Shown here: positions 17,153 through 35,305 of the stretch, one piece after another | Layout of the letters: each line of letters starts with the position of its first letter | How positions within the stretch are numbered: position 1 is the first letter of the stretch | From: an uncultured Gemmatimonadota bacterium | Lineage (GTDB): Bacteria; SM23-81; DAOVCL01 | Assembly (NCBI GenBank): GCA_964626665.1 | Contig: CAZVGK010000028.1 | Coordinates: 1 to 45,135, forward strand | Length of the DNA: 45,135 bases | Reading direction: 5' to 3' | Position numbers and translations under genes: made by a program | The notes under the pieces: generated by a model | Told to the model about the DNA's origin: nothing | The model's input: only the letters and a program-made list of their open reading frames with translations | The model's database searches: none

Positions 17153-17914
17153 CTATTTCAACATCCAGAGGCTGAGCGCCATCACGAGCATACCTGCAAT
17201 TACACCAACAATCGGCGTGTGTTCGCTGCCGAAGGACTTAGCCGCTGGGACAATCTCGTCAAGTGAGATGGAAACCATAATCCCGGCAACGGCGGCAAGC
17301 ACCCAACCTAACACGGTAAACGTCAAGAACGGTAGTAGCACCAGCGCAGCCAATCCAGCCCCTACGGGTTCGCTCACCCCGGATAGAAATGACCAGAGGA
17401 AGGCCTTACCGCGGCTACCCGTGGCTGCATAAACAGGGGCAGATACTGCCAAGCCCTCGGGAATGTTATGGATAGCAATGGCCACCGCGATGGCAATCCC
17501 CAGGTGCAGGTCTTCCAGAGCACCGGCAAAGGTTGCCATACCCTCAGGGAAATTATGAATCCCTATACCAAAGGCGATCAACAACCCAGTCCGCATCAAT
17601 CCACCTGTGGATTTGCCCTCAGGGTAGTCGTGCTGCCCAATGTATTCGTGAGGGACAAGAAAATCTACCAGAAAGATGCCCGTCATTCCGATGAAGAATC
17701 CCATCTGTGCAGGCAGAAATCCGATTAACTCGATGCCTCCCTGCAGTAGTTCCACAAAGGAGACCAGGATCATCACCCCGGCTGAGAAACCCAAGGTGAA
17801 TCCCATGAATCGCGGTCCCGGCTTGCGTATTGCCAGGCCAAGCAAGCTTCCGATAGTAGTCGCCAGTCCGGCTCCAGCAGTGAGCAGCAGCGCAATGCCA
17901 ACGTTGCTTTCCAT
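17153..17914 (-). CDS. zupT: ZIP family metal transporter (ZupT/GufA)
   Basis: HNFPEG and HNIPEG motifs, FSAGVM..VSF, SGVSEP; multiple transmembrane helices. Confidence 0.93.
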   Translation of the reverse strand: MESNVGIALLLTAGAGLATTIGSLLGLAIRKPGPRFMGFTLGFSAGVMILVSFVELLQGGIELIGFLPAQMGFFIGMTGIFLVDFLVPHEYIGQHDYPEGKSTGGLMRTGLLIAFGIGIHNFPEGMATFAGALEDLHLGIAIAVAIAIHNIPEGLAVSAPVYAATGSRGKAFLWSFLSGVSEPVGAGLAALVLLPFLTFTVLGWVLAAVAGIMVSISLDEIVPAAKSFGSEHTPIVGVIAGMLVMALSLWMLK

Positions 17915-17964
17915 ATTCCCTGCCTTTCTTTATTCTCGACCTGTCGCATCCACCTGATGGGTCT

Positions 17965-18312
17965 TTAATCTATTGGTACCTTTACAGCGTCTTCCATGGG
18001 GTCTTTGAAGGGAACCTCGATCTTCAGGAGCCCATTGTCGTATTTCGCCTCCGCCGCCTCTGGTTTCACGGGACAAGAGAAGGAGACGAGGTTCTCCACC
18101 TTGTAGAAGCCATAAGGGAAGGCCCGTGACTTCCTGCGGGAGATCCTGATCCCAAAGAGCACAGTGGCCGAGGAGACGATGTCGGAGAGGGAGTGAATGG
18201 CATCGGCAACCAGGGCGATACTCCCGGAGAGGAAGGCCAGGCTATACTTTATGAGCACCAAACAGCCATTGGTGATAATGGAATAGACTGCTACCCTTTC
18301 ACTGACATCCAC
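17965..18312 (-). pseudogene. Chimera of a cation diffusion facilitator N-terminus and an Hsp20 C-terminus
   Basis: SGSIALVADAIHSLSD...FPYGFYKVENLVS (CDF TM1-2) joined in frame at ~18081 to CPVKPEAAEAKYDNGLLKIEVP (end of an alpha-crystallin domain). Confidence 0.75.
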
Positions 18313-18333
18313 CCCTTCCCCTCCGCGCAGCTT

Positions 18334-18807
18334 TCAACTGCTATAGCCGGGAACGGTCTTCAGCTCGCTAAAGAAAATTTCCTTATCCTCCTTCCCCTTG
18401 ATCTGCTCTCCGGCCCTCTTCGCCAGTTGAATATACCGCTGAGCATCGGCCTTCTCCCCGGCTATGGCCTTTGCCCTGGCCATTGCCTCATAGGCAAAAG
18501 CGATATCAAAGTCCCCGATATGCTGAGCCTGGCAGACCTCTAAACACCTCTGAGCATGGTAGAGGGCCGGTTCCGGTTGGTGTAAAACCGCATAAACCCG
18601 GGAGATCTGCCACTCCCCCCTCTCCATCTCCAATTCCGTGCCCACCTCCCCCCAGTGAAACCTGGAAGCATAGGCGGCATAGAGCATTCTCTCGTCCTCC
18701 TCCTTGGTCCTCCCCTTCTTATCCAAGAGATCCCAGACAAGATTAAACAGGTCAACCGCGAACCTCTTATGGCACTCCTCCTCGGTATACCTCTTCTGCT
18801 CACTCAT
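18334..18807 (-). CDS. Conserved hypothetical helical (TPR-like) protein
   Basis: H..FAVDLFN..W.LL, ASRFHW, RGEWQISRVYA and AFAYEAMARA pattern; SD GGGAGG before ATG 18807. Confidence 0.75.
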   Translation of the reverse strand: MSEQKRYTEEECHKRFAVDLFNLVWDLLDKKGRTKEEDERMLYAAYASRFHWGEVGTELEMERGEWQISRVYAVLHQPEPALYHAQRCLEVCQAQHIGDFDIAFAYEAMARAKAIAGEKADAQRYIQLAKRAGEQIKGKEDKEIFFSELKTVPGYSS

Positions 18808-18936
18808 TCTATACCCTCCCAGCTGATTTGGTTCGTTCTGCTCCGAAAACTTCCCCAACAAGGGTGGGTCGGCTGTCCCCGTGTCCGCAAAGGCCTCACC
18901 ATTGACTCTTACCCACTCGAATCCATCAATTGCTCA

Positions 18937-19398
18937 TCATTCCTCAAGCATTACTGTATCCACCGGCTTGGGGCCCTTGACGGAGAGAAACGCTGCCGGC
19001 TCATCCCCGATGTTCTCAAATGTGTGGGGGATGTCCATCTTCCCCTGGATGACATCCCCGGATACGGCCACCAGCGCCTTATTACCCACCTTGAACTTGA
19101 TCCTGCCCTTGAGGATGAAGAAGAGTTCATCTGTTGTCGGATGCTTGTGCAGGGGCACCCTTTTGCCCACAGGCAGATTGTAGATATATGGCTGAATCCC
19201 CGAGTAATCGCCGAAGAAGGGGTTGACATCCACTTCATCACCGTAGGAGAGCTTCTGTCCATGGTGCATATGGATTAGCTCCTGCTCAGCGGTGATCTCC
19301 ACAAATTTCTCCCGCGGCGCCCCACAGTTGGGGCATTTCTCGGGAGGTTGGTCGCCGGTGTGCACATAACCACAGACGGTGCAACGCCACTTTTTCAT
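18937..19398 (-). CDS. Rubredoxin-like domain fused to a cupin domain
   Basis: WRCTVCGY...CPNCGAP, then cupin metal motif HKHPTTDELF...PHTFEN. Confidence 0.88.
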   Translation of the reverse strand: MKKWRCTVCGYVHTGDQPPEKCPNCGAPREKFVEITAEQELIHMHHGQKLSYGDEVDVNPFFGDYSGIQPYIYNLPVGKRVPLHKHPTTDELFFILKGRIKFKVGNKALVAVSGDVIQGKMDIPHTFENIGDEPAAFLSVKGPKPVDTVMLEE

Positions 19399-19540
19399 TC
19401 TATCTCCTTATTGGTTTTAGAGGGTGCCTCACGGAGCGTTTCAAAACCTCGTGAGACACCACTCCTCTTTGCCATTCTTGAAGCCATCCTGACGCCTCTC
19501 TATACCAAGAGATGCCCCGGATTCAGAAACCAGCTACCGA

Positions 19541-20128
19541 CTAAATCCTCCCTGCATTCTCTATGCTCGGTTCTATGCCCGCCTCACCCGGCTTCCAACC
19601 TGCCGGTGTAACTTTGCCGGTCTTCCTGACAAAGTTGAAAGCCTGAAGCTGCCTGAAGGTCTCCTCCAGGTTCCTGCCGCCGGTGGCATTTAACACCTCG
19701 TAACCCCGGAGGATGCCATCGGGATCAACGATGAACCTTCCTCTGGTCTCGATGCCCTGATCTTCGTCCACAACTCCATACTTTCGGCCAATTTCAAAGT
19801 TCGGATCGGCTATCATAGGCATTGGTGGGAATTTCTTTCCGATCTCCTGCAAAGCAGAAGTTATGGCCGGGCTGGTCTCTGCCCAGACTTTGTGGGAATG
19901 AACGGAATCCGCACTTATAGCAATGCCCATCCCACCAAACTGCTTCAAATTCTCATAGTTCTTTATTATCCCAGCAACTTCCGTCGCACAGACATAAGTG
20001 AAGTCACCCGGATAGAAACAGACCAATACCCACTTGCCCATGTAGTCAGACAATTTCACTTTGGTCACCTTACCCTCAAAGTAAGCAGTCCCCTCAAAAT
20101 CTGGTGCTGGCTTATCTACCACTACCAT
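19541..20128 (-). CDS. AhpC/PrxU-like peroxiredoxin (Cys form)
   Basis: FYPGDFTYVCATE, RGRFIVDPDG and TPAGWKPG; SD AGGAGG before ATG 20128. Confidence 0.92.
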   Translation of the reverse strand: MVVVDKPAPDFEGTAYFEGKVTKVKLSDYMGKWVLVCFYPGDFTYVCATEVAGIIKNYENLKQFGGMGIAISADSVHSHKVWAETSPAITSALQEIGKKFPPMPMIADPNFEIGRKYGVVDEDQGIETRGRFIVDPDGILRGYEVLNATGGRNLEETFRQLQAFNFVRKTGKVTPAGWKPGEAGIEPSIENAGRI

Positions 20129-20133
20129 CTTTA

Positions 20134-20631
20134 TCACCTCCTTTTCATCATATCCTCTATATCCTCCAGGAGAGCCTGGAAGTCTTCCTCGTGTTCCACC
20201 TCATCCTGAAGGATCTGGAGCACCATGTTGTAGGTGAGGGGGTCCTTATCCTTCGTCTTCTCCAGCAACCCCGAATATACCTCTATAGCACACCCCTCCC
20301 CCTCCACACCTTGCTCCAGCACCGCCTTCACATAAGGATCCTCAGGGTTCAGGTAGGCACAGTTGGCGGTCTTTTCCCAACTTCGCGGATCGGTGAGCGG
20401 GGTTCCCCCTAACTGGACCACCCGGTTGGCGATCATATCAGCGTGACGCAGTTCATCGGCAGCGTGCTCGATGAGCTCTGTGATGGCTGCCTCCTTCATT
20501 GGGCCCTTCACCACCTTGGCACCAACCCAATACTGGTAATAGGCAAGCCACTCATCCGCTAAGGCCTTGTTTAGTAGCTCCACCAGCTTGCCTACATCCA
20601 TCCTCACTATTCCCCTGCCTTTTGTTCCCAT
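20134..20631 (-). CDS. Ferritin-like / bacterial DPSL-type protein
   Basis: LADEWLAYYQY, DELRHA, NC.Y, EGCAI and DEVEHEED. Confidence 0.9.
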   Translation of the reverse strand: MGTKGRGIVRMDVGKLVELLNKALADEWLAYYQYWVGAKVVKGPMKEAAITELIEHAADELRHADMIANRVVQLGGTPLTDPRSWEKTANCAYLNPEDPYVKAVLEQGVEGEGCAIEVYSGLLEKTKDKDPLTYNMVLQILQDEVEHEEDFQALLEDIEDMMKRR

Positions 20632-20678
20632 TTCTAATCCTCCTTCGGTTGGAATTAGTTCTCTGGCAATTCCCTCGG

Positions 20679-20870
20679 TTATTCAGTCGGGGCATAGAAA
20701 CACCTCTTTGGCGAAGAGATCATCCCTTTGTTTTTCAGGCCGCTGATCAGCTTGGAGACCTCTTTGCTCTCCAGCCCGGTTAGCTTGACCACATCTCCCG
20801 GTCTCACTGGTTCCCCGGCCCCTCTCCTTGCCTTCAGCACCATCTGCTCCTTATCTGCCATCTCTACCAT
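20679..20870 (-). CDS. Small winged-helix protein (putative regulator)
   Basis: GEPVRPGDVVKLTGLESKEVSKLISGLK..G.I.SPKRCFY wHTH pattern. Confidence 0.75.
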   Translation of the reverse strand: MVEMADKEQMVLKARRGAGEPVRPGDVVKLTGLESKEVSKLISGLKNKGMISSPKRCFYAPTE

Positions 20871-20908
20871 CCCCTTTCCCCATCATTAGGTGGCAAACTC
20901 CTTGCATT

Positions 20909-21892
20909 TCATTTTGGCCCGGCCAGTGCCTCGATATATTGCAACCTCTCGTATAGCTCGGGACGGTCACTCTCCATCTGGCTGAGCTTGCCCCGTATCT
21001 GATCGATGGAGTCAAAACCGTGCTGGCTCATCCAGGCTCTTACCTCCTCCAGAATACGCCCGATCTGCTCTATCCCGTTAATGTATAGTGTAGAGCAGAC
21101 TTGAACGGCTGAGGCTCCCGCCAATAGCTGTTTGATAACCCCAGCCCCATAATGGACACCAGTTGAGGCTGCCAGATCGCAGCTCAGTTTGCCGGCAAGT
21201 AGGGCAATCCAGCGGAGGGAGAGACTCATCTCCTCTGGTGAGCTAAACCCGTATCCTGGGGCCAGTGCAAGCTTCTCGATATCGATGTCAAACTGATAGA
21301 AACGGTTGAAGAGAACAAGGGCCGAGGCACCACGTCTACAAAGTTCCCAAGCCATTCGTGCCATGGAGGTAAAGTAAGGACCTATCTTCACTGCAATCGG
21401 GATCCCAATGCGCCACTTCACCTTTTCAAAGATCTCCAGGTAGAGGCCCTCGATCTCCTTGCTGCTCCGCTGCGGGTCGCTGGGCATCACCGCCATGTTC
21501 AGCTCCAAACCGTCTGCTCCCGCGCCAGCGACCTGCTTTGCATAATCGCTCCACCACTTGGGCGAGACGCAATTCATGCTGGCGATTATCGGTATGGAGA
21601 CCGCCTTCTTCGCCTCTTCTATCAGTTTCAGGTATCCCCGTGGCCCCAGGGCCATACCCATCTTTCGCACATATTCGCGCGCCTCAGTATGGCCGGGCAG
21701 CCAGGATCCTTCCCCCAACTCCCTGGTCTCCGCCTCTATCTGCTCCTCAAAGAGAGACTTGAGAACAATGCCGCCAGCCCCGGCAGCGGCGCAGCGACGC
21801 ACGCCCTCTAAGCTCCTCACCAGACTGCAACTGGCCACAATAAGTGGATTAGGTAAATCTAATCCCATATACTTTGTGGAAAGGTCCACCAT
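20909..21892 (-). CDS. Dihydroorotate dehydrogenase-like flavoprotein
   Basis: DLSTKYMGL.L.NPL, VLKSLFEEQI, LELN, VKIGPYF, VLFNRFYQ and K.LLAGA..VQ. Confidence 0.9.
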   Translation of the reverse strand: MVDLSTKYMGLDLPNPLIVASCSLVRSLEGVRRCAAAGAGGIVLKSLFEEQIEAETRELGEGSWLPGHTEAREYVRKMGMALGPRGYLKLIEEAKKAVSIPIIASMNCVSPKWWSDYAKQVAGAGADGLELNMAVMPSDPQRSSKEIEGLYLEIFEKVKWRIGIPIAVKIGPYFTSMARMAWELCRRGASALVLFNRFYQFDIDIEKLALAPGYGFSSPEEMSLSLRWIALLAGKLSCDLAASTGVHYGAGVIKQLLAGASAVQVCSTLYINGIEQIGRILEEVRAWMSQHGFDSIDQIRGKLSQMESDRPELYERLQYIEALAGPK

Positions 21893-21964
21893 AGTATAAC
21901 CTCCTTCTTTATCTCTCGATGATTTCGGATGAAATGCTCACTGCACCTCCCGCACTATCCCTTC

Positions 21965-23566
21965 TCAGAATATGCGTTTGGGCTCTGTGGCTATATCCAC
22001 CAGCGCAGGTTTGGGTGAGGCAAGTGCCTCCTGCAAAGCCCCCTTGAGTTGCTCCGACCGCTTTACCTTCCATCCCTCTCCGCCACAGTTTCTGGCATAG
22101 GCGGCAAAGTCGGGGTTGGTCAGCTCAGTGGCGAATGGGGGGTATCCCTCCGCCCTCTGCTCCACGGTGATCATCGCTAACTCCTGGTTGTTCAAGAGGA
22201 CAACGGTAAGATCGAGCTTGTTCTTCACCGCGGTGAGAAAGTCGCCCATCACCTGGGTGAACCCCCCGTCACCAGTGAGGCAGATGACCTGCCTCTTGGG
22301 CTGGGCGAGTGTGGCGACCAGCCCACCAGGGAGGCCAAACCCCATACTGCCTAAGTAGCCGGACATCAGCAGCCCCTGTTCATCTTTCATCTGGAAGTTT
22401 CTGCCGAACCAAAACCCATTGTCCCCCACATCCAGCGAGATGATGGCGTTGGGGGCTGCTAAATCCTCCAGGAGCTTCATTATGTACTGGGGCCTGAGCG
22501 GGACCGCCTGAGGGTCAGCTTCCCTTTCCAGCTTTTCCTCCCAATCAGCTTTGAGTCCTTTCACCTCATCCATAAACTTCCGCTGGCTTTTGGCTTCCAC
22601 TAAGCCAATCAGCTTGGGGATTACCAACCGATTATCACCCCAAAGACCTAACTTCACCGGAAAACTTTTCGCTACCTTCATCGGATTTAGATCTACTTGG
22701 ACGATGGGGATCTCCCGGGGAATGTCCGTCTGTTCGGAGAAGGAGGAGCCGAAGACGATGAGCAGGTCGGCATGGTTGACCACCTGGCGGGCAGGCTGGG
22801 TGCCGGTATGGCCCAAAACCCCCAGTGATAATTGACTGGCTTCAGATATTATACCCTTGGCGCGGAAGGTTGTGGCTATGGGAGCAAGGATCTTCTTGGC
22901 CAACTTCAACAGATCCCCCTTGGCCTGCTTGGCCCCCCATCCCGCGATGATCACCGGCCTCTCCGCCTGGTTGATTAGGGCAGCTGCTTGCTTTAGGGCC
23001 TTTTCAGGGGGTTCAATGGAGAGGGCGGGAAAAGACCCTTCCCAGGGCTGCGGCTGAGCCTCCCAGGGCTGCTTCTGCACATCATTGGGGACGGCCAGAT
23101 GGGCCACCCCTCCCTCGGTGAGGGCATGTTTCAAGGCCAGGGTAACCAGCTCCCTGGTCTGTTCCTTGGCATTGATCGTTTTGTTAAAGACAGATACCGG
23201 ATGAAACAGGGCATCCTGGTCGATCTCCTGGAAACTCCCTGGCCCCACATATTGCAATTTAACCTGGCCTGTGAGGGCCAGAACCGGGGCCCGATCCATC
23301 TGGGCATCATAAAGCCCGGTGATCAGATTTGTGGCCCCCGGCCCGGCTATGGTTAAACAGACCCCCACCCGGCCGGTCAGCTTGGCATAGGCTGAGGCCA
23401 TAAATGCGGCCACCTCCTCATGCCGCACCTGGATAAACCTCACCCGCTCACTCCGCCGCAAGGCATCCACCAACCCCAGAGCAGATGTCCCCGGCAGACC
23501 GAAGACCCACTCCACCCCCCAAGCTGCTAACTGTTTTATGATGACATCGGAGACCGTGCTTTCCAT
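21965..23566 (-). CDS. Thiamine pyrophosphate-dependent enzyme (pyruvate oxidase/PoxB-like)
   Basis: RHEEVAAFMA, GPGATN, GSFQEID, SMGFGLPG and the GDGG...NN TPP motif. Confidence 0.9.
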   Translation of the reverse strand: MESTVSDVIIKQLAAWGVEWVFGLPGTSALGLVDALRRSERVRFIQVRHEEVAAFMASAYAKLTGRVGVCLTIAGPGATNLITGLYDAQMDRAPVLALTGQVKLQYVGPGSFQEIDQDALFHPVSVFNKTINAKEQTRELVTLALKHALTEGGVAHLAVPNDVQKQPWEAQPQPWEGSFPALSIEPPEKALKQAAALINQAERPVIIAGWGAKQAKGDLLKLAKKILAPIATTFRAKGIISEASQLSLGVLGHTGTQPARQVVNHADLLIVFGSSFSEQTDIPREIPIVQVDLNPMKVAKSFPVKLGLWGDNRLVIPKLIGLVEAKSQRKFMDEVKGLKADWEEKLEREADPQAVPLRPQYIMKLLEDLAAPNAIISLDVGDNGFWFGRNFQMKDEQGLLMSGYLGSMGFGLPGGLVATLAQPKRQVICLTGDGGFTQVMGDFLTAVKNKLDLTVVLLNNQELAMITVEQRAEGYPPFATELTNPDFAAYARNCGGEGWKVKRSEQLKGALQEALASPKPALVDIATEPKRIF

Positions 23567-23637
23567 GAGAGCTTAACCTCCTCTTACCTCAATTACCAGA
23601 CCCTTAGCTAATGATGTGGGGACAATTGGCTTTGATG

Positions 23638-24024
23638 TCATTTCTTATCTTGCTTTTCCCTATAGTCCTTAATCGCCTCGTGCAGGGCATCTGCCGCCAG
23701 ATTGGAACAGTGCATCTTCTGCGGAGGAAGGCCATCGAGTTCATCGGCCACATCATTACGGGTAACCTTGATCGCCTGGTCGATGGGCATTCCCTTCACC
23801 ATCTCGGTGACCATACTGCTGGTTGCTATGGCAGAACCGCAGCCAAAGGTCTTGAACTTTATCTCGGTGACCACATCATCCTTCACCTTGATGAACATCT
23901 CCATCAGATCCCCACACACGGGATTCCCCACCTTTCCATATCCATCTGCATTTTCTATGGTGCCCACATTTCTGGGATTCATAAAATGATCCAAAACCTT
24001 TTTGCTATATCCTATATCCGCCAT
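23638..24024 (-). CDS. iscU: Fe-S cluster scaffold IscU/NifU-N
   Basis: YSKKVLDHF.NPRN, GNPVCGD, FGCGSAIA and LPPQKMHCS. Confidence 0.96.
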   Translation of the reverse strand: MADIGYSKKVLDHFMNPRNVGTIENADGYGKVGNPVCGDLMEMFIKVKDDVVTEIKFKTFGCGSAIATSSMVTEMVKGMPIDQAIKVTRNDVADELDGLPPQKMHCSNLAADALHEAIKDYREKQDKK

Positions 24025-24042
24025 TTAAATACCTCCTTCATC

Positions 24043-25197
24043 CTATAAAGCTGAAAGCTTCCGCAACCTCTCCACCGTTTCCTGCACCGCATCTACAATG
24101 ATGGGAACCTCCTCTAACTTATTGGCTTGTCCCAGGGTGAGCACCATTGAGCCGTGTGCCTCCTCATGTTTCAACCCTATTGCCAAGAGCACATGTGAGG
24201 GTTCCAGGGTTTTGGAGGAACAGGCCGATCCTGTAGCCACTTGAATGTTATGGCGCATATCCATATTTAACAGGATGCTTTCTCCCTCAATCCGAGAGAA
24301 GCGAAAGCTCGCATGATGGGGAAGCCTCTCCGTGGGATGGCCGGTGAGATAGGCTTCCTTGATCTTCAATATTTCACTGATCAGTTTGTCTCTCATTCTT
24401 TTAAATCTCTTGCTCTCCTCACCAATTTCAGTCTGGGCAATCCTCGCCGCCTCTCCCATTCCCGCAATGGCAAAGAGGTTCTCCGTCCCGGACCTCAGCC
24501 CCATCTCCTGCCCGCCACCGGGGAGGATGGGTTGCAGCCTCAACCCTGGCCTTATGTAGAGGGCACCAGCCCCCGGGGGGCCAGAGAGGTCGTTGGAGGA
24601 TAGGGTAAGCAAGTCTATCCTATCGGCTTGCACATCTATCGGTATGCGACCTCCGGCAGCGGTGGCATCGCAATGAAGATAGAGGCTCTTCTCGTGGACT
24701 AGCTGCGCTATTTCCCTTATCGGCTCTATTGTGCCAATTTCGCTGTTGGCCAACATTATTGCGGTCACTATGGTATCGCCTATAAGGATAGCGTTCAGCT
24801 TGCCCATATCGACTATACCAACAGAGTCAACCGGCACGAGGTTAAACTGAAAACCGCCCTTCTGCAGCTCCTTCATTGGATTGAGAACGGAGATGTGCTC
24901 AATGGAACTGGCCAATACCTTTCTCCCCTTACCCGCATTACGCAAGGCAGTTCCCTTGATGGCCAAGTTGTTCGCCTCGGTGGCTCCGCTGGTGAATATA
25001 ATACTTTCCGGTTTCTCCGCATTGATCAGCTCAGCCACCTTCTCCCTGGCTTCCTCCAACGCCCTCTTTGCCTGCAAGCCCGCCGAGTGGAGGGAGGAGG
25101 GATTTCCAAAGCTTCGCTCTAAATATGGTTGGGCAAACTTCAGCACCCGCGGGTCAACTGGCATAGAGGAGGCGTGATCTAAGTATATCCCTTTCAT
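24043..25197 (-). CDS. iscS: IscS/NifS-like protein with the PLP-lysine replaced by Asp
   Basis: FGNPSS.H, TSGATEANN, EH.SV, GGGQE.GLRSGT and TGSACSS are retained. The canonical S-x-H-K-x-x-G-P-K-G reads SSNDLSGPPG (GAC at 24589-24591). Confidence 0.92.
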   Translation of the reverse strand: MKGIYLDHASSMPVDPRVLKFAQPYLERSFGNPSSLHSAGLQAKRALEEAREKVAELINAEKPESIIFTSGATEANNLAIKGTALRNAGKGRKVLASSIEHISVLNPMKELQKGGFQFNLVPVDSVGIVDMGKLNAILIGDTIVTAIMLANSEIGTIEPIREIAQLVHEKSLYLHCDATAAGGRIPIDVQADRIDLLTLSSNDLSGPPGAGALYIRPGLRLQPILPGGGQEMGLRSGTENLFAIAGMGEAARIAQTEIGEESKRFKRMRDKLISEILKIKEAYLTGHPTERLPHHASFRFSRIEGESILLNMDMRHNIQVATGSACSSKTLEPSHVLLAIGLKHEEAHGSMVLTLGQANKLEEVPIIVDAVQETVERLRKLSAL

Positions 25198-25207
25198 ACC
25201 ATCATCC

Positions 25208-25567
25208 TTAGAAGCTGAGGATGGCAGTGGCGTCCAGGGCGAGGTCGTTGAGGGTGGCTGCCCCTACTATCTTTGCCTGGGGAATGAAGTCCCCCCTGGA
25301 TATGCCCAGGAGCTGGGTGCTTTGCTCGCAGACGAAGAGCTTCACCCCAGCGGCTAATGCCTGATCCATAACCTCTCGCAAACTGGGGAAATCCCCTAAC
25401 TTCACCCTTTCTGCCTCCCCCTTCTTGACCACTGTGACCCCCTTTATCAGGAAGTAGATCTCTGCCGCCACTCCCATATTGGCCGCAGTAGTGGCCAGAA
25501 TAAAGGGGGCATACAACCTCTCCGGAATATCTACCCCATTCGTCTGGATGTAGAGGATCCTCTCCAT
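25208..25567 (-). CDS. DsrE/DsrF family sulfur-relay protein
   Basis: YAPFILA..A, IYFLIKGV, GVKLFVCEQS (conserved Cys) and IVGAATL. Confidence 0.88.
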   Translation of the reverse strand: MERILYIQTNGVDIPERLYAPFILATTAANMGVAAEIYFLIKGVTVVKKGEAERVKLGDFPSLREVMDQALAAGVKLFVCEQSTQLLGISRGDFIPQAKIVGAATLNDLALDATAILSF

Positions 25568-25576
25568 TTTGCCCTC

Positions 25577-25825
25577 CTATTTCATCCTCTTTAGGTAAAA
25601 AGTCAAAACCGTCCCCTCCCTCTCAAATTTGAGCAGTGCCTGTCCCGCCCTTTTTGCCCACCGCTTTATGTCCTCCTCGGCGGCGGGGTCATCGGCCACT
25701 ACCTTGAGCACCTGGCCCACCTCCATATTTTCCATCTCCTCCTTGGTCAGAGAAATGGGCATAGGGCAGTAGAGACCCAGACAGTCCAATTCTGCATCTG
25801 CCACAACATCTGGAGACATCATCAT
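25577..25825 (-). CDS. tusA: TusA/SirA family sulfurtransferase
   Basis: LDCLGLYCPMP, GQVLKVVADDPAAEEDI..W. Start probably at the ATG run near 25825. Confidence 0.92.
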   Translation of the reverse strand: MMMSPDVVADAELDCLGLYCPMPISLTKEEMENMEVGQVLKVVADDPAAEEDIKRWAKRAGQALLKFEREGTVLTFYLKRMK

Positions 25826-25911
25826 TATCCCCCTTGAAATTTTCGCGTCCCCCTCGGTAAGCTCTAAGGCCATCTACTCACAAACATGAGACGAGCGGGC
25901 GAATCCCCTAA

Positions 25912-26142
25912 TCAAAGGGCAACAACCTCTTTCACTTCAGGCACTTCTTGCTTTATTGCCCTTTCAATGCCTATCTTCAAGGTTATCTGGCTCATGGGAC
26001 ATCCTTGGCAAGCACCGGTTAGCCTTAGAGTTACCACGCCATCCGGGCTGACCCTCACTAACTCCACATCTCCGCCATCAGCCTGCAAAGATGGCTTGAT
26101 TCTCCTGAGAGCGGATTTGACTCTCTCTTTCACCTCTTTCAT
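25912..26142 (-). CDS. NifU-C / NfuA-like Fe-S carrier
   Basis: IKPSLQADGGDVEL, LTGACQGCPMS.ITLK.GIE. Confidence 0.95.
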   Translation of the reverse strand: MKEVKERVKSALRRIKPSLQADGGDVELVRVSPDGVVTLRLTGACQGCPMSQITLKIGIERAIKQEVPEVKEVVAL

Positions 26143-26279
26143 CTTTTCCTCCCCATATCTGTCTGCCCTTAAGTTCGCCCGTCACGGGGGACCCAAATAG
26201 CCACCTGGCTTGGCGCGCACTGAAAAGCACCTAATGTGGCTATCCATCCCAAATTAACAAGCATCCCTGGAGAAACCTC

Positions 26280-26807
26280 TCAGAAGGTCCATTCCTCTCT
26301 CTCAAACCACTGGGCCGGGTTCTCTAAGAGCTGCAGGGAATTGTCCAGGATCTGATAGTGCTCCCACTCCATATCAGCCATAAAAAGGTAAAAGTGCTTA
26401 GCCTTATTGTCCGATGATTCCTCAGCCTTTTTCTGGTAGAAACCAGCCAGCTTGTCCTCGATATCTCGCGCCGATCGATAGGCCTCCAAATCATCGGCAT
26501 CTGCCCTCACCGTTTGGTCTATCCTCTCCCGCAGCTTTTGGAAGATGGTCTTGAATGTATCGATGGCTTCCCCCTTCTTCGGCAACACCTTCTCAACCGA
26601 CTCCCATCTCCCCTTCTCCATAAGTGAGGAGTAGAACTTATCAATGGCCTTCATATGCTCCAGCTCCCAATCGGCCAGGGCACGGAAGGTCTCCTTGGCC
26701 AACGGATGAGACGCTTTTCCCTGAGCTTTTAGGTAGAACTTGCGTCCGTCCTTCTCCATCTGCAGGGCCAACCGCAAAGCGTGTAGATCCTCTTTCCTTG
26801 AATCCAT
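26280..26807 (-). CDS. Rubrerythrin-like ferritin-family protein (no rubredoxin domain)
   Basis: ALQMEKDG..FY, WELEH, IEDK...FY and MEWEH. Confidence 0.88.
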   Translation of the reverse strand: MDSRKEDLHALRLALQMEKDGRKFYLKAQGKASHPLAKETFRALADWELEHMKAIDKFYSSLMEKGRWESVEKVLPKKGEAIDTFKTIFQKLRERIDQTVRADADDLEAYRSARDIEDKLAGFYQKKAEESSDNKAKHFYLFMADMEWEHYQILDNSLQLLENPAQWFEREEWTF

Positions 26808-26932
26808 TGTATTTACCTCCTTACTCTAAGTTTTTTCCTTTGCTTACGATATAGCTTCCCCTTTCCTTATCCATTGGTGATCATATTTTCCCTTTTGGGA
26901 AAGGGCAGCTCCGAAGAGACGACTTAAACCTT

Positions 26933-28141
26933 TTACCTCTCTTCCGGTGTATATCCAACTTCCCGGATGGCTTCCTCAACTTCTTTTAGGCTTAAGTCAC
27001 CATCCACTCCCACAGTCTTCTCTCCCAGATCAACCAGCACCCCTTTGACCCCGGCCATACCGCGCAGCTTGTTCTCAATGATCATTCGGCAATGTTTGCA
27101 GGTCATATCCGGAACCCATAACTTGTATCTCATTGGCTTCGTCTCCTTTTTCCCTTCATAGAATCCCCTGAGGATAAGGAGAAAGAGGATCCCCCCAGTT
27201 AAAAATTGAAAGAACGGGGGAAGCCCGCTTCCCTGCGGGGAGATGAGGCCCACACCCCCCCCCAACCTCAACCAAAAAAGGTTGAAAATCCATCCGATAA
27301 GCAGGGAAATCAGGATGATGAAGGAAAGGTAGATATAGAAAGCGCGGCGACCCAGTCTGGAGTAGACAAAGGAGAGGGTCACCGTATTGGTTGCCGGACC
27401 AGCAATGAGAAAGACCAGAGCTGACCCAGGAGAAAAACCTTTGCTAATCAGGGCGGCGGCAATGGGAATGGAGCCTGTGGCACAGACATAGAGGGGAATC
27501 CCCAGGGCCAGCATCACTAGGAACTGCAGGGAGAGGGAGGAAAGATAGCGGGTGAAAAGATGCGGGGGGATGATCGCGGTGAGGACCCCACCAGCCACCA
27601 CCCCTATCAGGAGCCATTTCCCGATCTCCGCGGCCAGTTCCAAAAAGCCATAGCGGAAGACCTCCCTCACCTTAAAGGAGGGGGGCAACTGAGGATGGCG
27701 ATGCCCACTGAACTTCCTTTTTCCTTCTGGATTGAAGAGCCAGTTAAAAGCTCCAATAGTTATCCCGGTAAGAAAGGCGGCCAGGGGGCGAAAGATGGCA
27801 AAGAGGGGACCCAGGAGGGAATAGGTGGCAAAAAAAGAGTCTACCCCAGTTGTGGGGGTGGATACCAAAAAGGAGAGAACTGAGCTCTTGCTGGCTCCCT
27901 CCCTCCTGAGGGATGCGGCCACCGGGATGACCCCACAGGAGCAGAGGGGAAGGGGAATACCGAAGAGGGTGGCTTTGAGGACAGACCTGGGCCCCCCTCC
28001 ACCCAGATGCCGCCCCACAAACCCCTCTCCCAAGAAGGAGTGCAGCCCCCCGGCGATGAGCATACCCAAAAGCAGGTAAGGGGAAAGGGCCAGCCACAAC
28101 CTAACGGACTCTCTCAAAACATTGTAAATTAAGTTGAACAT
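26933..28141 (-). CDS. DUF318/ArsP-like permease with C-terminal HMA domain (SO_0444-type metal efflux)
   Basis: GIPLPLCSCGVIP, PLYVCATGSIP, L.AGPATN and C-terminal MTCKHC. Confidence 0.9.
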   Translation of the reverse strand: MFNLIYNVLRESVRLWLALSPYLLLGMLIAGGLHSFLGEGFVGRHLGGGGPRSVLKATLFGIPLPLCSCGVIPVAASLRREGASKSSVLSFLVSTPTTGVDSFFATYSLLGPLFAIFRPLAAFLTGITIGAFNWLFNPEGKRKFSGHRHPQLPPSFKVREVFRYGFLELAAEIGKWLLIGVVAGGVLTAIIPPHLFTRYLSSLSLQFLVMLALGIPLYVCATGSIPIAAALISKGFSPGSALVFLIAGPATNTVTLSFVYSRLGRRAFYIYLSFIILISLLIGWIFNLFWLRLGGGVGLISPQGSGLPPFFQFLTGGILFLLILRGFYEGKKETKPMRYKLWVPDMTCKHCRMIIENKLRGMAGVKGVLVDLGEKTVGVDGDLSLKEVEEAIREVGYTPEER

Positions 28142-28142
28142 C

Positions 28143-29324
28143 TCATCCTTTTCCGAGGATTTCTGCCAACTTGTTCCCCTGTTCCCTCACTCCAGCCAGC
28201 TCCCGCTCATCCGGCACCCACTGTAGCTTCACTCCGGGGAAGGGGATCTGCCAACCCAGCTCCTCCATCACCTTCTCTATCTCCCCCACGGCCTGCCCTC
28301 CCCAACCATAGGAGCCAAAGGCAAAGCCGATCCTCTTCTGGGGCCGCAAACCCTTCAGATAGGTGAGGAAAGCTCCCATAGTGGGGAGTAGCCCGTTGTT
28401 TAGGGTGGGTGAACCCACCAGGATAAGCCGAGAACTGAGCACATCAGTCATTATATCGGAGATGTGGTTGGTCTTTAGGTTCCTTAGCGTCACGGGCAGA
28501 CTCTCGGCTTCCAGACCCTCCCGCAGGATATGGGCCATCCTTTCGGTTGACCCCCACATCGTGTCATAGACGATCAAGGCCTTCCTTTGCGACTCATATT
28601 CTGCCCATCCTTGGTAGGCTTCCAGGATTTGAGGCAGGAACCCCCGCCAGATGAGCCCATGGCTGGGAGCGACCATATCGATATCCAAACCAGAGAGGGC
28701 ATCCAACGCCTTCTGCACCTGGTCACCATAGGGAAGGACGATGTTGGCATAATATTTGGCCGCTTCCTCATAGGCGATGCCCCAGCCGATCTCATCATCA
28801 AATCTCTCCGCAGTGGCAATATGCTGCCCAAAGGCATCATTGGGCAAAAGCAGTTTCTCCTGGAGGATGTAGGTGGCCATTGAATCCGGCCAGTGGACCA
28901 TAGGGGTGAGGAGAAACTGTAGGGTATGTCGCCCGATGCTGAGCGTATCACCGGACTTGACCACCTGAAAGTCCCAATCCGCCCTGAAGTGTCCTCTCAA
29001 CCCCTTTTGGCCTTGAGGTGAGGTAATCACCTTGGCCCGCGGGGCAAGTTCCAATATCCTGCAGATGCCTCCCGAGTGATCCATCTCCACATGGTTGGAA
29101 ATGATGTATTCGATCTGGAAGGGATCGACAACCTCTCGAATGCGGGAAAGCATCTCATCGAAGAGATAATGCTTAACGGTGTCCACCAAAACTATCTTCT
29201 CATCGACGATCAGATAGGAGTTGTAGGTGGAACCCCTCTGGGTGAGGTAGCCATGGAAATTGCGCAGATCCCAATCGATCCCCCCCACCCAGTAGACTCC
29301 TGGTTTTATCTCCACAGGTTTCAT
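28143..29324 (-). CDS. fprA: Flavodiiron protein (FprA/ROO; O2/NO reductase)
   Basis: G.TYNSYL, HVEMDHSG, HWPD, NDAFGQH and SHG; flavodoxin domain YDTMWGST and FGSYGW. Confidence 0.96.
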   Translation of the reverse strand: MKPVEIKPGVYWVGGIDWDLRNFHGYLTQRGSTYNSYLIVDEKIVLVDTVKHYLFDEMLSRIREVVDPFQIEYIISNHVEMDHSGGICRILELAPRAKVITSPQGQKGLRGHFRADWDFQVVKSGDTLSIGRHTLQFLLTPMVHWPDSMATYILQEKLLLPNDAFGQHIATAERFDDEIGWGIAYEEAAKYYANIVLPYGDQVQKALDALSGLDIDMVAPSHGLIWRGFLPQILEAYQGWAEYESQRKALIVYDTMWGSTERMAHILREGLEAESLPVTLRNLKTNHISDIMTDVLSSRLILVGSPTLNNGLLPTMGAFLTYLKGLRPQKRIGFAFGSYGWGGQAVGEIEKVMEELGWQIPFPGVKLQWVPDERELAGVREQGNKLAEILGKG

Positions 29325-29544
29325 AGATCACCTCCGGCAAAAATTATCGCCACACCCCCCATTATTCTCAATATCTGGCATCCATTCTGAACTCAGCGAT
29401 GTCAAACCAAAATCCAGAATTGGAGACATAATCAAGCTGTGCCTGCAACAAATCATAATGATATTCTTCCTCTTGTCTTATCTTTGTAAATATCCTTTTG
29501 GCAAGTGGGTCACCCGTTTCTTCCGCAACCTTATTAAAAAATTC

Positions 29545-29840
29545 GGTTCATCTCCATTTTAGTTGAAGGGATAAATCACCACTTTGCAGTTGGTTATCCA
29601 AAATATGAAATCTCAGATCATCAATATTTACGGTTTGAAATTCACTAAGTCCCTGTTTTTCAAAGTCATAAAGCGAGGAATTTCGTAAAACCTATCAAAA
29701 TGCCAACTGTTTAATTGATAATGACTTAGGAATTTGGAAACTCTGTGATTTCGTGTATTGTGACCGAAATAGATTGTTACTTAACCTCCAGTTATTCCTG
29801 ATGTTATAAGAACTTGCTTCAACTAAAATGGAGAAGAGCC
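29545..29840. mobile_element. 296 bp MITE with ISL3-like terminal inverted repeats
   Basis: TIRs GGTTCATCTCCATTTTAGTTGAAG and GGCTCTTCTCCATTTTAGTTGAAG (22/24). Flanks aaaaattc and caaaattc look like a 7/8 bp target duplication. No transposase inside. Confidence 0.8.
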
Positions 29841-30070
29841 CAAAATTCAAATGTTCAAAACAAGTCCTGTTTCGGTCATTTGGATTTAGAACTTAGGATT
29901 TGCTTAACCCTAAGTCATCTAAAAGTTATGTGGGTTAACTGTCTCCAATGATACGCAACAGAACTTATGAAACGGACCACTTAGTTCTCACCTGCACCAC
30001 AGGCAGGCTGGTTAAATCTCGGTTTACTTCTCCTTCTCGAACTGATCCTTGGTGGGGTCCAGATGTTTTT

Positions 30071-30730
30071 CTAAAGGGGCCAGGTGTCCATATTATACAT
30101 CGCCTCCCAGTAGGTATGTTCGTATCTGCTGGCGGTAGTAAATATCTCTCTCAATTTCTCATAGGGAAAACCCTTACCTGCCTTATCTACAAGCTCTCTC
30201 ATCCTGCTCACCAAATTTAGATAAGGTTCTGATAAATATACCGTAGCCCACTCCACATACAGCCTATTCCCATTTTTGCTCAGTTTGTCTTTATGGCGCG
30301 CGGCAATTTCGGCATAGGACCAAAAACAGGGCAGGATGGAGGTGATAGATTCCGCATAGGACCTTAAAGAACTGGTGGAGAGGAGAAAACTTGTGTAGGA
30401 GATGTTCACCGGCAGGGGTTCAATGCTGATCGCATCCTTCAGAGAATATCCCAACTTCTCCAGGAACTCCTCATAACCCTTAAACTCACTTTCTGACTCC
30501 AGCCATAATATCTCGATAACCTCTCTCATCGCATTTAGGGAGTTAGCCCGGGAGGATATTATACTGAGGTTTTTTATGGCCGAGACAAGATAATTGTAGT
30601 CTTGCAGGATATAGAATTTGAACTTCTCCAGCGGCAGAATGCCGTCATAAAGTTCTACTACAAAGGGGTGTTCAATTATTCCTTCCCATATGTGGTTTGC
30701 GTCTGATCTTAGCCTTTGCGAAACTTTCAT
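30071..30730 (-). CDS. tenA: TenA family thiaminase II / aminopyrimidine aminohydrolase
   Basis: HPFV, FKFYILQDYNYL, ILPCFWSY (catalytic Cys), Y.EW...Y and E..YW. Confidence 0.92.
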   Translation of the reverse strand: MKVSQRLRSDANHIWEGIIEHPFVVELYDGILPLEKFKFYILQDYNYLVSAIKNLSIISSRANSLNAMREVIEILWLESESEFKGYEEFLEKLGYSLKDAISIEPLPVNISYTSFLLSTSSLRSYAESITSILPCFWSYAEIAARHKDKLSKNGNRLYVEWATVYLSEPYLNLVSRMRELVDKAGKGFPYEKLREIFTTASRYEHTYWEAMYNMDTWPL

Positions 30731-32193
30731 GGTTTTCTCCCCTGAACCACTATGTAATCCCCTTTTTCATACCCCTCTATTGGTTCCTCTATTCCGTTGT
30801 TAGTATATCTGGGATGTTTTGTCAGGGTTTGCACATATTTTAAATCGACAAAACCGGCCTCCTTTAGCAAATTACTGACTTCCCGGGTCGAATGCCAATG
30901 GGTCCCTTTGATAAACTTAAGAGGATAAGGATTGGGGGGGGCAGTTTCGGGATCGTGTTTCCCCCGAAGATAAGCCAAATCATACATCATCGCATAGGAA
31001 CCTTCCCTGGCCAAAAAGGAGACGACGATATGCCCATTAGGTTTTAAGATGCGATAGGCTTCCCTTACTGCCTTTTGGGGGTCATCCACATAACTAAGGA
31101 TAGTGCTCAGCAAGACCGTATCAAATCTCTCATCTTCAAAAGGAACTTCTTCAGCAACACCTATTTTTACTTTAATCCCCCTTTTCTCCGCTAATTTGGC
31201 CATCTCCTTTGCGGGTTCTACCCCATGTTCAATCCCCAACCGGGAAGCAAACAATCCGTCTCCCACTCCAATGCTCACGGAATTATTTGGGTTAGATAAA
31301 AAATGTTTCTCCGTCAAGAGCTCGGATTCAAAGACAACCTGGTTCTGGCTAAACCAGCGATCAAAATCCGCTGCGGCCTCCTCAAAAGCGGAAATCTTCA
31401 GAGGTTCAATGTTATGGTATAGGGGGCCGTGGCCCTTGCCTATGTTGCCTGGTGCATTCCTTATGGCCCTCGTAATGTAGTCCTTTGCCACTTTGACTGC
31501 GTCGTGAATACTCATTCCTTTAGATAATCCAGCAGTTATCGCCGCCGAGAGTGTGCAGCCCGTGCCATGGGTATTTTCCGTAGCCACCCTTTCCGCTTCA
31601 TAGTAGGTGTATTCTTCCCCATCAAAGAGAAGGTCAATAGCTTTCTCCCCAGAGAGGTGTCCTCCTTTCAGCAGGACAAACCTTGCCCCATTCCCTTGGA
31701 TGATTTTAGCCGATTCTTGGGCATCTTCGATACCCATTATCTCCATCCCACTAATTATCTCCGCTTCAAAGACATTAGGGGTAATGAGAAAGGCTACAGG
31801 CAATAATCCCGCAATAAGGGCACTTTCCGCATCCTCTCTAAGGAGACGAGCACCACTTTTGGCCACCATAACTGGATCCACTACCAATTTCTCTATTCTG
31901 TATTTCTTAACTTTGTCAATAATCACTTCTATTATATCTTTATTGGAGACCATCCCTGTCTTTGCTGCATCTGTCCCCATATCTTCCATTATCATATCTA
32001 TCTGATCCCCCACAATGTCTGGAGATATATCGTGGATAGAACGCACTCCCTGGGTGTTCTGCGATGTTACAGATGTAACCACAGACATTCCAAAGCAATT
32101 AAAGGCTTGAAAGGTCTTTAAATCTGCCTGTATGCCAGCCCCTCCCCCTGAATCAGAGCCGGCAATAGTTAAAGCTTTACCTTCATAGTTCAT
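30727..32193 (-). CDS. thiD: HMP/HMP-P kinase ThiD fused to a class I SAM-dependent methyltransferase
   Basis: TIAGSDSGGGAGIQADLKT, VVDPVM, ITPN..EA, LLKGGH and THGTGC. C-terminal half has SIGVGDGLFA, GVEPA, AEEVPF....FD and YRILKPNG. Confidence 0.9.
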   Translation of the reverse strand: MNYEGKALTIAGSDSGGGAGIQADLKTFQAFNCFGMSVVTSVTSQNTQGVRSIHDISPDIVGDQIDMIMEDMGTDAAKTGMVSNKDIIEVIIDKVKKYRIEKLVVDPVMVAKSGARLLREDAESALIAGLLPVAFLITPNVFEAEIISGMEIMGIEDAQESAKIIQGNGARFVLLKGGHLSGEKAIDLLFDGEEYTYYEAERVATENTHGTGCTLSAAITAGLSKGMSIHDAVKVAKDYITRAIRNAPGNIGKGHGPLYHNIEPLKISAFEEAAADFDRWFSQNQVVFESELLTEKHFLSNPNNSVSIGVGDGLFASRLGIEHGVEPAKEMAKLAEKRGIKVKIGVAEEVPFEDERFDTVLLSTILSYVDDPQKAVREAYRILKPNGHIVVSFLAREGSYAMMYDLAYLRGKHDPETAPPNPYPLKFIKGTHWHSTREVSNLLKEAGFVDLKYVQTLTKHPRYTNNGIEEPIEGYEKGDYIVVQGRKP

Positions 32194-32367
32194 CTCTTTC
32201 TTCCCTCTTGAATTTACCTTTTAATGCCCCTCACACCGAGCAGGCCTAACCGGAGGGGCCAATCTGGAAAGTTACCACATATCCTGTAGAAACGCAGGCT
32301 CCTTATCGTCACCCCTGCCAGTAGCCATAGATATTCAACCCTTTGGAAAAGTTGGCTTTAGGTCCGA

Positions 32368-32862
32368 CTACTCCTTTAAAGCCACCAACTCCCCGCTGAG
32401 CAGGGTGAGATGGCCCATCTCCTCTTTGATGATGTTCTCTACCTTATCTTTGCTCAACCCAGGCGTAACCATCTCCCTGATCCCCTGGTAGAAAACTATG
32501 GAATCCTTCTCCAAGCCAATGGCCATCCGTAGGATATCCTCCACCGACTCTTCTCCCGTCAACCATTCAGTGGGATCCTGGCGCAAATCAAATACCTGCC
32601 CATCGGCTATGGCCTGCAGATACCTGACCCCCTCACCGCTGGGATCAAAACCGCCCACCACCCCCTCCTTTCCGGAGAGGTCCTCCCTCAGGGAATGGAA
32701 GGTGCGTTCGTGCTCATCCTCCATAGCGGCAAGCCCGAGCAGCTTCTGCTCCACCCCAACATCCGAAACCCCCTGGGCTGCCTTCCGGTAGAACTTCGCC
32801 CCGTTGCGCTCGATCCGCTCGGCCATCTCTAAGATCTCATCGGCATTGAAACGGATGGTCAT
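32368..32862 (-). CDS. Rubrerythrin-like ferritin-family protein
   Basis: FNADEILEMA.RIE.NG..FY, MEDEH, LEKDSI.FY and EEMGH. Confidence 0.9.
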   Translation of the reverse strand: MTIRFNADEILEMAERIERNGAKFYRKAAQGVSDVGVEQKLLGLAAMEDEHERTFHSLREDLSGKEGVVGGFDPSGEGVRYLQAIADGQVFDLRQDPTEWLTGEESVEDILRMAIGLEKDSIVFYQGIREMVTPGLSKDKVENIIKEEMGHLTLLSGELVALKE

Positions 32863-33952: not shown

Positions 33953-33989
33953 AGGGGAAGAAACCCAACCACCCACGTTAATAGCCTGA

Positions 33990-35303: not shown

Positions 35304-35305
35304 TT

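Follow-up and report, generated by a model that had tools for sequence, protein, structure and literature searches.

How is an iron-sulfur (Fe-S) cluster built on an IscS-IscU pair whose IscS has no desulfurase function? A 2022 review asks this of the IscS-IscU cluster of Archaeoglobus fulgidus, naming sulfide as one proposal (PMC8918507), and the same question is raised by a 45,135-nucleotide stretch of DNA from an uncultured Gemmatimonadota bacterium (contig CAZVGK010000028.1 of assembly GCA_964626665.1; the window, below). One operon in this window encodes an IscS that lacks the lysine of the pyridoxal 5'-phosphate (PLP) site (gene iscS*, protein IscS*) together with Nfu, TusA, DsrE and IscU. 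From the sequence alone, an original prediction had read these five genes as a desulfurase-independent module for Fe-S assembly or repair, in which sulfur would run from sulfide or polysulfide through DsrE and TusA to the cysteine of IscS* and then to IscU. We find that lysine-less IscS is a known type, here in a new form: an IscS-IscU pair with a dead IscS and an attached, well-conserved, putative TusA/DsrE relay. The nfu gene and the placement of the operon inside a large oxygen-defence island are particular to this window.

The lysine-less IscS family

The motifs on which the prediction was built are all present in the translations: IscS* contains DATA (as HCDATAAGG), SSND (LSSNDLSGP) and TGSACSS, TusA contains CPMP (LYCPMP), DsrE contains VCEQS (FVCEQS) and Nfu contains CQGC (GACQGCP). 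Canonical desulfurases have DAVQ where IscS* has DATA and SxHK where it has SSND. IscS* is a homologue of type I cysteine desulfurases and by Pfam (PF00266) keeps the class V aminotransferase fold, and it scores below the cut-off of every desulfurase equivalog model, reaching 422.8 bits on the NifS equivalog TIGR03402 (cut-off 530.75) and 366.1 bits on TIGR02006 (cut-off 643.2). Its nearest solved match (E 4.5e-128, residues 5-383) is the sequence of 4eb5, 4eb7 and 4hvk, which has DATA, SSND, GSACSS and HG..(V/L)LTLG as IscS* does; the sequence of 4r5f differs from it by SSNK. According to the review cited above, 4hvk is A. fulgidus IscS and 4r5f its D199K variant, and the A. fulgidus protein has Asp199, carries pyridoxamine 5'-phosphate instead of PLP attached to a lysine and is inactive as a desulfurase; its part may be no more than to supply one Cys ligand for the [2Fe-2S] cluster of IscU (PMC8918507). 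IscS* had been assigned to this Lys-to-Asp type, and the match and the common DATA and SSND motifs bear the assignment out.

We compared the window protein and 80 relatives (n = 81) with 112 lysine-bearing representatives in E. coli IscS numbering, taking as separating those positions that are at least 90% conserved in the lysine-less family and at least 80% conserved in the lysine-bearing set. Eight positions separate the two, and four of these are pocket residues. At the position of K206 the lysine-less family has Asp in 77 sequences, Glu in two, Asn in one, Ala in one and Lys in none, against Lys in 112 of the 112 lysine-bearing representatives; H205 is replaced by Asn in 80/81 (His in 94/112 of the lysine-bearing set), Q183 by Ala in 77/81 (Gln in 106/112), and R354 by Val in 78, Ile in two and Leu in one (Arg in 111/112). 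The window residues at K206, H205, Q183 and R354 are D203, N202, A180 and V352, respectively. Q183, H205 and R354 we take to be pocket residues, and H104, D180, T76, S203 and T243 presumably hold the cofactor; the latter five are retained in the window protein as H101, D177, T73, S200 and T238, and the persulfide-loop cysteine (E. coli C328, window Cys326) is present in all 81 family members. Because the lysine, the adjacent histidine, the glutamine and R354 are all replaced family-wide, IscS*, judged by its residues, cannot act as a PLP enzyme in the manner of canonical IscS. The retained residues fit a protein that would still hold the cofactor non-covalently and use its Cys loop.

Compared with those of its nearest relative (locus L010), the genes tusA, dsrE, iscS* and iscU have ratios of nonsynonymous to synonymous substitution (dN/dS) of 0.13, 0.08, 0.11 and 0.09, values that are rough since dS is about 0.7-1.3, and all four genes appear to be under purifying selection. 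A private decay mutation is ruled out as the origin of the missing lysine, which is absent in 81/81 family members at a dN/dS of about 0.1 against L010. A compensating lysine is ruled against by alignment only, in that no family-conserved lysine aligns with any of 12 pocket positions. The lysines that are conserved in at least 80% of the lysine-less family align with E. coli positions 57, 95, 112, 116, 173 and 345, of which R112 and R116 are described as partner-binding surface residues in E. coli IscS (PMC2854127).

In a search of 1.84 billion representatives clustered at 50% identity, the family of IscS* is contained in one representative at 562 bits, the next scoring 404 bits, and the PLP lysine is absent from 21 of the best 150 representatives. 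We placed these in a FastTree phylogeny of 164 rows, comprising 148 representatives with at least 330 aligned residues (two short ones were dropped), the window protein, the canonical copy from its own genome and 14 of the 80 relatives, with local SH-like support and no bootstrap. IscS* belongs to a clade of 16 rows without the lysine (support 100), itself part of a larger lysine-less one of 20 rows (support 97); 12 further lysine-less rows group in another part of the tree, on which the lysine state needs six changes. The lysine-less representatives outside the own family are a small sister group (P0003, P0006, P0023 and P0031) and this separate group of 12 (P0009, P0026, P0030, P0038, P0043, P0054, P0064, P0094, P0108, P0111, P0124 and P0125). 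The residues found there instead of the lysine vary (S, T, Q, G, P, R, N), and most of these sequences are also without the glutamine and the arginine. A Thermoplasmata genome encodes, besides its cassette copy, a second lysine-less IscS paralog (L140; G030:C219:6100-7400) with DAVA, SSQD, GSACTS and SIAFT.

A cassette of tusA, dsrE, iscS and iscU in archaea and bacteria

Scanning one genome per species, we confirmed 216 relatives of IscS* among 276 matched stretches, and the counts that follow concern the best 80 of these 216, which are 65-79% identical to it. By record title 50 are archaeal, including 29 Thermoplasmatota and 18 Methanobacteriota; 28 are bacterial, including Ignavibacteriota, Zixiibacteriota, Thermodesulfobacteriota, Myxococcota, Cloacimonadota, Acidobacteriota and Planctomycetota; and two are unassigned. 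In a tblastn search with the window proteins, 69 loci offered 800 nt or more of upstream sequence, and in 65 of these tusA and dsrE immediately precede iscS on the same strand; the other four have tusA only (L081, L084 and L087) or neither gene (L023). Downstream, 76 loci offered at least 500 nt, and 70 of them have an iscU no more than 400 nt away; the whole four-gene cassette is present in 56 of the 65 loci with both flanks. The predicted linkage of tusA and dsrE to an SSND-type IscS therefore recurs in archaea and bacteria alike. Of the five-gene module as originally drawn, tusA, dsrE, iscS and iscU recur together and nfu does not, being found upstream on the same strand in only six of the 62 loci whose upstream flank reaches 1300 nt or more, so that Nfu is an occasional extra outside the core.

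The residues expected of sulfur carriers had been recognized in both upstream proteins, and they prove invariant. In TusA, C36 of the CPMP motif aligns with Cys19 of E. coli TusA (3lvj_C), and C36 together with D62 and D68 (E. coli D45 and D51) is invariant in 34/34 aligned sequences. A further cysteine, C31 (DCxGxxCPMP; numbering of the listed open reading frame, ORF), is present with C36 in 72/72 sequences, the window included, and its position is occupied by A, M, A or V in the four distinct solved TusA-family proteins that we compared. This extra cysteine five residues ahead of the active one is, by alignment, a new finding here, and a resolving thiol or a metal ligand are possible roles for it. 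Cassette TusA scores 54.5 bits on the E. coli TusA equivalog NF001423, below the cut-off of 78, and gives weak sub-threshold matches of 43.3 and 36.7 bits to models of the YedF selenium-metabolism type.

In DsrE, Cys80 (VCEQS) is found in 73/73 sequences, again with the window included, and it aligns with a cysteine of the nearest solved relative, 3mc3_A (E 1.9e-14), which is the trimeric DsrE3A of S. solfataricus (PMC11094781). By this nearest structure the cassette protein appears closest to the DsrE3-like type. The dsrE genes at the conserved position (L010-L089) are of two types, 61-83% and 41-57% identical to that of the window; the invariant cysteine is common to the two, whose distribution does not track the division between archaea and bacteria.

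At the other end of the cassette, IscU exceeds the cut-off of equivalog TIGR03419 (211.7 bits against 187.9) and has the ligand equivalents C37, D39, C63 and C106 (in VCGD, FGCGSA and HCSNL) as well as LPPQK. Its ligand motifs are conserved in 73-74 of 75 sequences. Nfu, which consists of a NifU C-terminal domain with CQGC, is probably an Fe-S cluster carrier.

The same gene order is on record in one methanogen. The isc1 cluster of Methanosarcina acetivorans runs SirA-like MA0810, DrsE-superfamily MA0809, IscS1 (MA0808) and IscU1 (MA0807), as the cassette does; IscS1 is described there as devoid of the catalytic lysine and perhaps acting in the way of its A. fulgidus counterpart (PMC7585200). 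It differs in that IscU1 is a 24-kDa protein with an extra part and a HIT protein (MA0811) is encoded, whereas here IscU is a plain 128-residue protein and nfu lies ahead; the legend of Fig. S1 also lists a hypothetical MA0806. In that source the extra isc1 genes are "of unknown function", isc1 was not studied, and IscS1 formed inclusion bodies (PMC7585200). This supplementary legend is the only place in the open full-text literature, subscription papers lying outside the search, where we found the carriers linked to a lysine-less IscS-IscU pair; the sole paper in the same literature to combine DsrE, TusA, IscU, cysteine desulfurase and archaea concerns keratin degradation. The A. fulgidus pair itself (IscS2-IscU; 4EB5, 4EB7, 4HVK) resembles the cassette in having Asp at the lysine position and an IscU partner, and differs from it in being archaeal; here the host is bacterial and tusA, dsrE and nfu are in the operon. 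The passages that treat the A. fulgidus pair consider sulfide as a possible source and leave the carriers unmentioned (PMC7585200, PMC8918507).

The operon, its genome and the oxygen-defence island

All five ORFs are on the minus strand, and their coordinates agree with those originally given (Table 1). The gaps from nfu through tusA, dsrE and iscS* to iscU are 38, 9, 10 and 18 nt, purine-rich, GGAGG-like ribosome-binding sites precede the starts, and each of the five proteins matches its Pfam family (NifU, TusA, DsrE/DrsE_2, Aminotran_5 and NifU_N) above the curated cut-off; the genes form one operon. A scan of positions 19000-30000 returned four promoter-like sites (7.7 expected) and 11 terminator-like sites (11.7 expected), none of either kind inside the cassette. 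An MMM run occupies residues 17-19 of the listed TusA ORF, and the aligned relatives (n = 33; 34-row alignment) start there, so that the true start is probably at this run, near 25825, giving a protein of about 82 residues. The 23 sequencing runs that matched the cassette stretch are all DNA, with no RNA run among them; positions 23600-26300 are contained at full word share in 18 of them, which carry the label salt marsh metagenome and may be the source, and in part in the other five.

Table 1. Positions in the window of the operon genes and of the island that surrounds them.
Feature	Coordinates	Strand	Description
nfu	25912..26142	-	76 aa; PF01106 96.8 bits (cut-off 27); CQGC
tusA	25577..25873	-	98 aa as listed; PF01206 84.2 bits
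dsrE	25208..25567	-	119 aa, single Cys; PF02635 60.1 bits and PF13686 62.2 bits
iscS* (lysine-less IscS)	24043..25197	-	384 aa; PF00266 (Aminotran_5) 232.7 bits
iscU	23638..24024	-	128 aa; PF01592 (NifU_N) 173.3 bits
Island of oxygen, peroxide and nitric oxide defence and iron handling around the cassette	16457..41529	-	Pfam scans

In the genome, which is 99.65% complete, TusA, DsrE, NifU_N and the Nfu domain (PF01106) each give a single match, always in this operon, and a search at that completeness found no DsrC or TusE. Because these are the sole TusA and DsrE and no DsrC/TusE was found, the classical Tus/Dsr relay partners of the carriers are not encoded in the genome. A cassette that holds the only IscU, TusA, DsrE and Nfu of its genome is new here and specific to this window. 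Elsewhere the genome has a SufC-like ATPase adjoining a short SufB/D-like protein, both below all equivalog cut-offs.

The claim of desulfurase independence is not supported at the level of the organism. A look for a canonical IscS or SufS, as had been proposed, found one canonical desulfurase on contig 27 (locus L001, 566-3563), with HTDAVQ, SGHK and GSACTS, which scores 568 bits on TIGR03402 and so passes the cut-off of 530.75. It sits between an Rrf2-family (Rrf2/IscR-like) regulator gene and the quinolinate synthase gene nadA, with no scaffold gene adjoining. The organism's sole IscU-type scaffold is thus paired with a dead IscS, and its active NifS is without an adjoining scaffold. Other cassette genomes also have such enzymes: in an Aminotran_5 search of 48 of the 80 related genomes, chosen for their longer flanks, with the best match per genome fetched, that match is lysine-bearing in 45 (29 type I and 16 SufS-like type II; L115 and L131 are counted). 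In the other three it is the cassette's own gene. One of these (G047) also has a fragment, truncated by the end of its contig, whose identity to a lysine-bearing copy is 85%; in another (G030) the next full-length match is a further lysine-less paralog (SSQD); and in the third (G040), a genome whose completeness is not known, the cassette's own gene is the single strong match. The organisms with the cassette are thus not free of desulfurases, and a cysteine-derived feed may serve it.

The surroundings of these lysine-bearing genes differ from those of iscS*. A TusA-like ORF lies within 2 kb in only one of the 45 lysine-bearing loci (L097), against tusA adjoining the lysine-less iscS in 68 of 69 loci (the three without dsrE included), so tusA tracks the lysine-less paralog and not the active one. 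IscU-like ORFs lie within 2 kb of the lysine-bearing gene in 9/45 loci. The desulfurase gene adjoins nadA in the own genome and also in 18 loci among the 48 fetched, each of these 18 being lysine-bearing. In M. acetivorans nadA is likewise beside the desulfurase gene, in the isc2 cluster (PMC7585200), and NifS-NadA of B. subtilis is described as a dedicated donor-acceptor pair (PMC13066941).

The oxidative-stress surroundings that had been suspected are, by Pfam, a real oxygen- and iron-defence island. Its genes encode ferritins, a ZIP transporter, a rubredoxin-cupin protein, two peroxiredoxins, four rubrerythrin-like proteins, a flavodiiron protein, a hybrid-cluster protein, a flavin reductase-rubredoxin, a thioredoxin-like protein and Fpg. 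Homologues of the peroxiredoxin, ferritin-like, rubrerythrin-like or flavodiiron proteins occur in the available flanks of 29 of the 80 related loci, 25 of which have at least one within 2 kb of iscS* (rubrerythrin-like 14, flavodiiron 11, peroxiredoxin 11, ferritin-like 3); near the lysine-bearing desulfurases, in 2-kb flanks, they were found in 0/45 loci. This recurrent link of the cassette to oxygen-defence genes is new here.

The island of about 25 kb is interrupted by a pair of TenA and hydroxymethylpyrimidine-phosphate kinase-methyltransferase genes (30071-32193) and by DHOD-like and thiamine-pyrophosphate (TPP) enzyme genes (20909-23566); the TPP enzyme has an 88% identical homologue in L010, directly after iscU. 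A 63-residue ORF at 20679-20870 (-) has no Pfam match, recurs near the cassette in L056 (57%) and L073 (43%), and may encode a regulatory protein of small size. Between the flavodiiron gene and a rubrerythrin-like gene, upstream of nfu, lies a gene (26933-28141, -) for an ArsP_1-family permease fused to a C-terminal heavy-metal-associated domain, with homologues flanking the cassette in L010 (76%) and L023 (43%). The hybrid-cluster (prismane) protein (33990-35303, -; 437 residues) matches its Pfam profile over positions 136-513 only and is without the usual N-terminal part.

Possible routes of sulfur to the scaffold

Where, then, does the sulfur come from? The reading that we prefer, with a little less than even confidence, is a persulfide relay from DsrE through TusA and the IscS* cysteine to IscU, fed by sulfane sulfur that does not come from cysteine. 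In such a relay the DsrE trimer would pick up sulfane sulfur on Cys80 and hand persulfide sulfur to Cys36 of TusA, which would dock on the IscS* dimer as in E. coli and give sulfur to the loop cysteine, Cys326, instead of taking it; the IscS* loop would then bring the sulfur to IscU, serving also as the fourth cluster ligand, and Nfu would receive the finished cluster. The primary source would most likely be low-molecular-weight or inorganic sulfane sulfur (polysulfide, persulfides) and not cysteine, and a source of this kind would fit the oxygen-defence context, because polysulfide and persulfides arise when oxidants act on sulfide. The direction of flow, the sulfide/polysulfide source and the role in repair are what we infer.

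Related systems lend parts to this proposal. TusD of the E. coli Tus relay is a DsrE homologue, and that relay thus has a DsrE-family partner, as the cassette does. The E. coli IscS-TusA/TusBCD-TusE system (3LVJ) also shares with the cassette the TusA fold, the CPxP cysteine, the aspartates D45 and D51 and a flexible IscS Cys loop, and in the IscS-TusA structure Cys19 of TusA and Cys328 of IscS are about 4 Å apart (PMC2854127). There an active IscS is the donor and tRNA thiolation the end point, whereas the cassette has an inactive IscS, an IscU neighbour and a TusA with an extra invariant cysteine, and no TusE/DsrC was found in the genome. The DsrE3-TusA cascade of sHdr systems likewise has a small DsrE3-like protein beside TusA: its DsrE3B and DsrE3C trimers take sulfur from polysulfide and give it to TusA, DsrE3 to TusA being the preferred direction in the published account (PMC11094781). 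That cascade feeds a dissimilatory sulfur-oxidising complex; the cassette genes sit with iscS* and iscU, and in this genome DsrC was not found. The MIS system (MisS-MisU) is a two-gene IscS/IscU-like core without chaperones in anaerobes, whereas the cassette has three further genes attached; according to a 2026 review, MIS can use sulfide and is the least studied Fe-S system (PMC13066941).

Several observations weigh against the DsrE-first relay. Its order is the opposite of the classical one, in which sulfur passes from IscS to TusA and on to a DsrE homologue. The positions of E. coli IscS W45 and E49 are L and R in the lysine-less family, D52 being retained as E, and mutating either W45 or E49 abolishes TusA binding (PMC2854127), so the TusA-docking surface is not simply conserved. 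E. coli TusA and IscU, moreover, bind IscS one at a time (PMC2854127), and archaeal DsrE3A, the closest solved relative of cassette DsrE, carries thiosulfonate and not sulfane sulfur (PMC11094781). The canonical NifS here and the lysine-bearing desulfurases in at least 45/48 cassette genomes keep a cysteine-derived feed available, and the cassette IscU is the sole NifU_N match in 11 of the 48 other cassette genomes, so that the module is often one of several. The reading, with its presumed sulfur source, draws on sequence and gene context. A complex prediction for the IscS* dimer with TusA residues 17-98 (34-row alignments) scored 0.19, against a mark of 0.32, which speaks neither for binding nor against it.

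The same relay and target could instead be fed from cysteine, with the canonical NifS (SufS in other hosts) loading TusA, with or without DsrE, and a non-catalytic IscS*-IscU serving as a protected assembly site, for example under oxygen. We consider this rather unlikely. The equivalog-level NifS that stands between the Rrf2 regulator and nadA with no IscU adjoining would suit such a donor, as would the lysine-bearing top Aminotran_5 match in 45/48 cassette genomes and the scarcity of IscU-like ORFs beside these genes (9/45 loci only), and IscS to TusA is the established direction in E. coli (PMC2854127). Yet tusA is linked to the active paralog in one of 45 loci and to the dead one in 68 of 69, a DsrE3-type donor is needless if a desulfurase loads TusA directly, and G040 has no strong Aminotran_5 match but the cassette's own. 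The 18 of 48 fetched desulfurase loci that adjoin nadA, all lysine-bearing, also point away from it, NifS-NadA being a dedicated pair in B. subtilis (PMC13066941). Less probable still, in our judgement, is that IscS*-IscU uses free sulfide directly while TusA and DsrE buffer, detoxify or salvage reactive sulfur in an outward flow, for example off damaged clusters or off over-persulfidated IscS* or IscU under oxidative stress. The order IscS, TusA, DsrE homologue would then be the classical one, oxygen-defence genes recur as neighbours, and the extra invariant Cys31 of TusA could resolve a persulfide; use of sulfide has been proposed for A. fulgidus (PMC8918507), and sulfur transferases are described as networks without strict direction, with DsrE4 proteins proposed to detoxify reactive sulfur species (PMC11094781). 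A lysine-less IscS makes no persulfide, however, which leaves an outward flow without an evident source other than damaged clusters; the genome has no DsrC/TusE sink protein, and a four-gene order so tightly kept is commoner for the parts of one pathway. Least credible is a module outside Fe-S assembly, which we regard as highly improbable: it could be a decaying remnant, or could use its IscU-like protein in thiolation or on the way to molybdenum cofactor or selenium products. The sub-threshold YedF matches of TusA and the several roles of TusA in E. coli (PMC11094781) speak for it, but IscU scores above its equivalog cut-off and has every cluster ligand, an Nfu carrier is in the operon, TusE/DsrC was not found in the genome, a dN/dS of about 0.1 excludes decay, and A. 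fulgidus IscS2-IscU binds [2Fe-2S] in crystals (PMC8918507, PMC13066941).

A wider version of the preferred DsrE-to-TusA relay is rather doubtful. It would make the cassette a widespread line of Fe-S assembly or repair that needs neither cysteine nor PLP, in which a DsrE3-like trimer harvests sulfane sulfur and TusA passes it to the loop cysteine of the dead IscS. The second cysteine of the TusA Cx4C motif would act as a built-in resolving thiol, so that sulfide would be freed on the scaffold without an external reductant, and the cassette would be switched on together with the surrounding oxygen-defence genes.

With the carriers upstream in 65/69 loci, the question of sulfur supply can be put as one well-defined experiment, on four small proteins and four cysteines. 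It also concerns the survival of Fe-S enzymes in strict anaerobes exposed to oxygen, here with the only IscU scaffold of the genome in a defence island. If the cysteine- and PLP-free line is true, it would answer the published question of how IscS-IscU pairs of the A. fulgidus type obtain their sulfur, and would be a third route of sulfur entry into Fe-S biogenesis, beside cysteine desulfurases and free sulfide.

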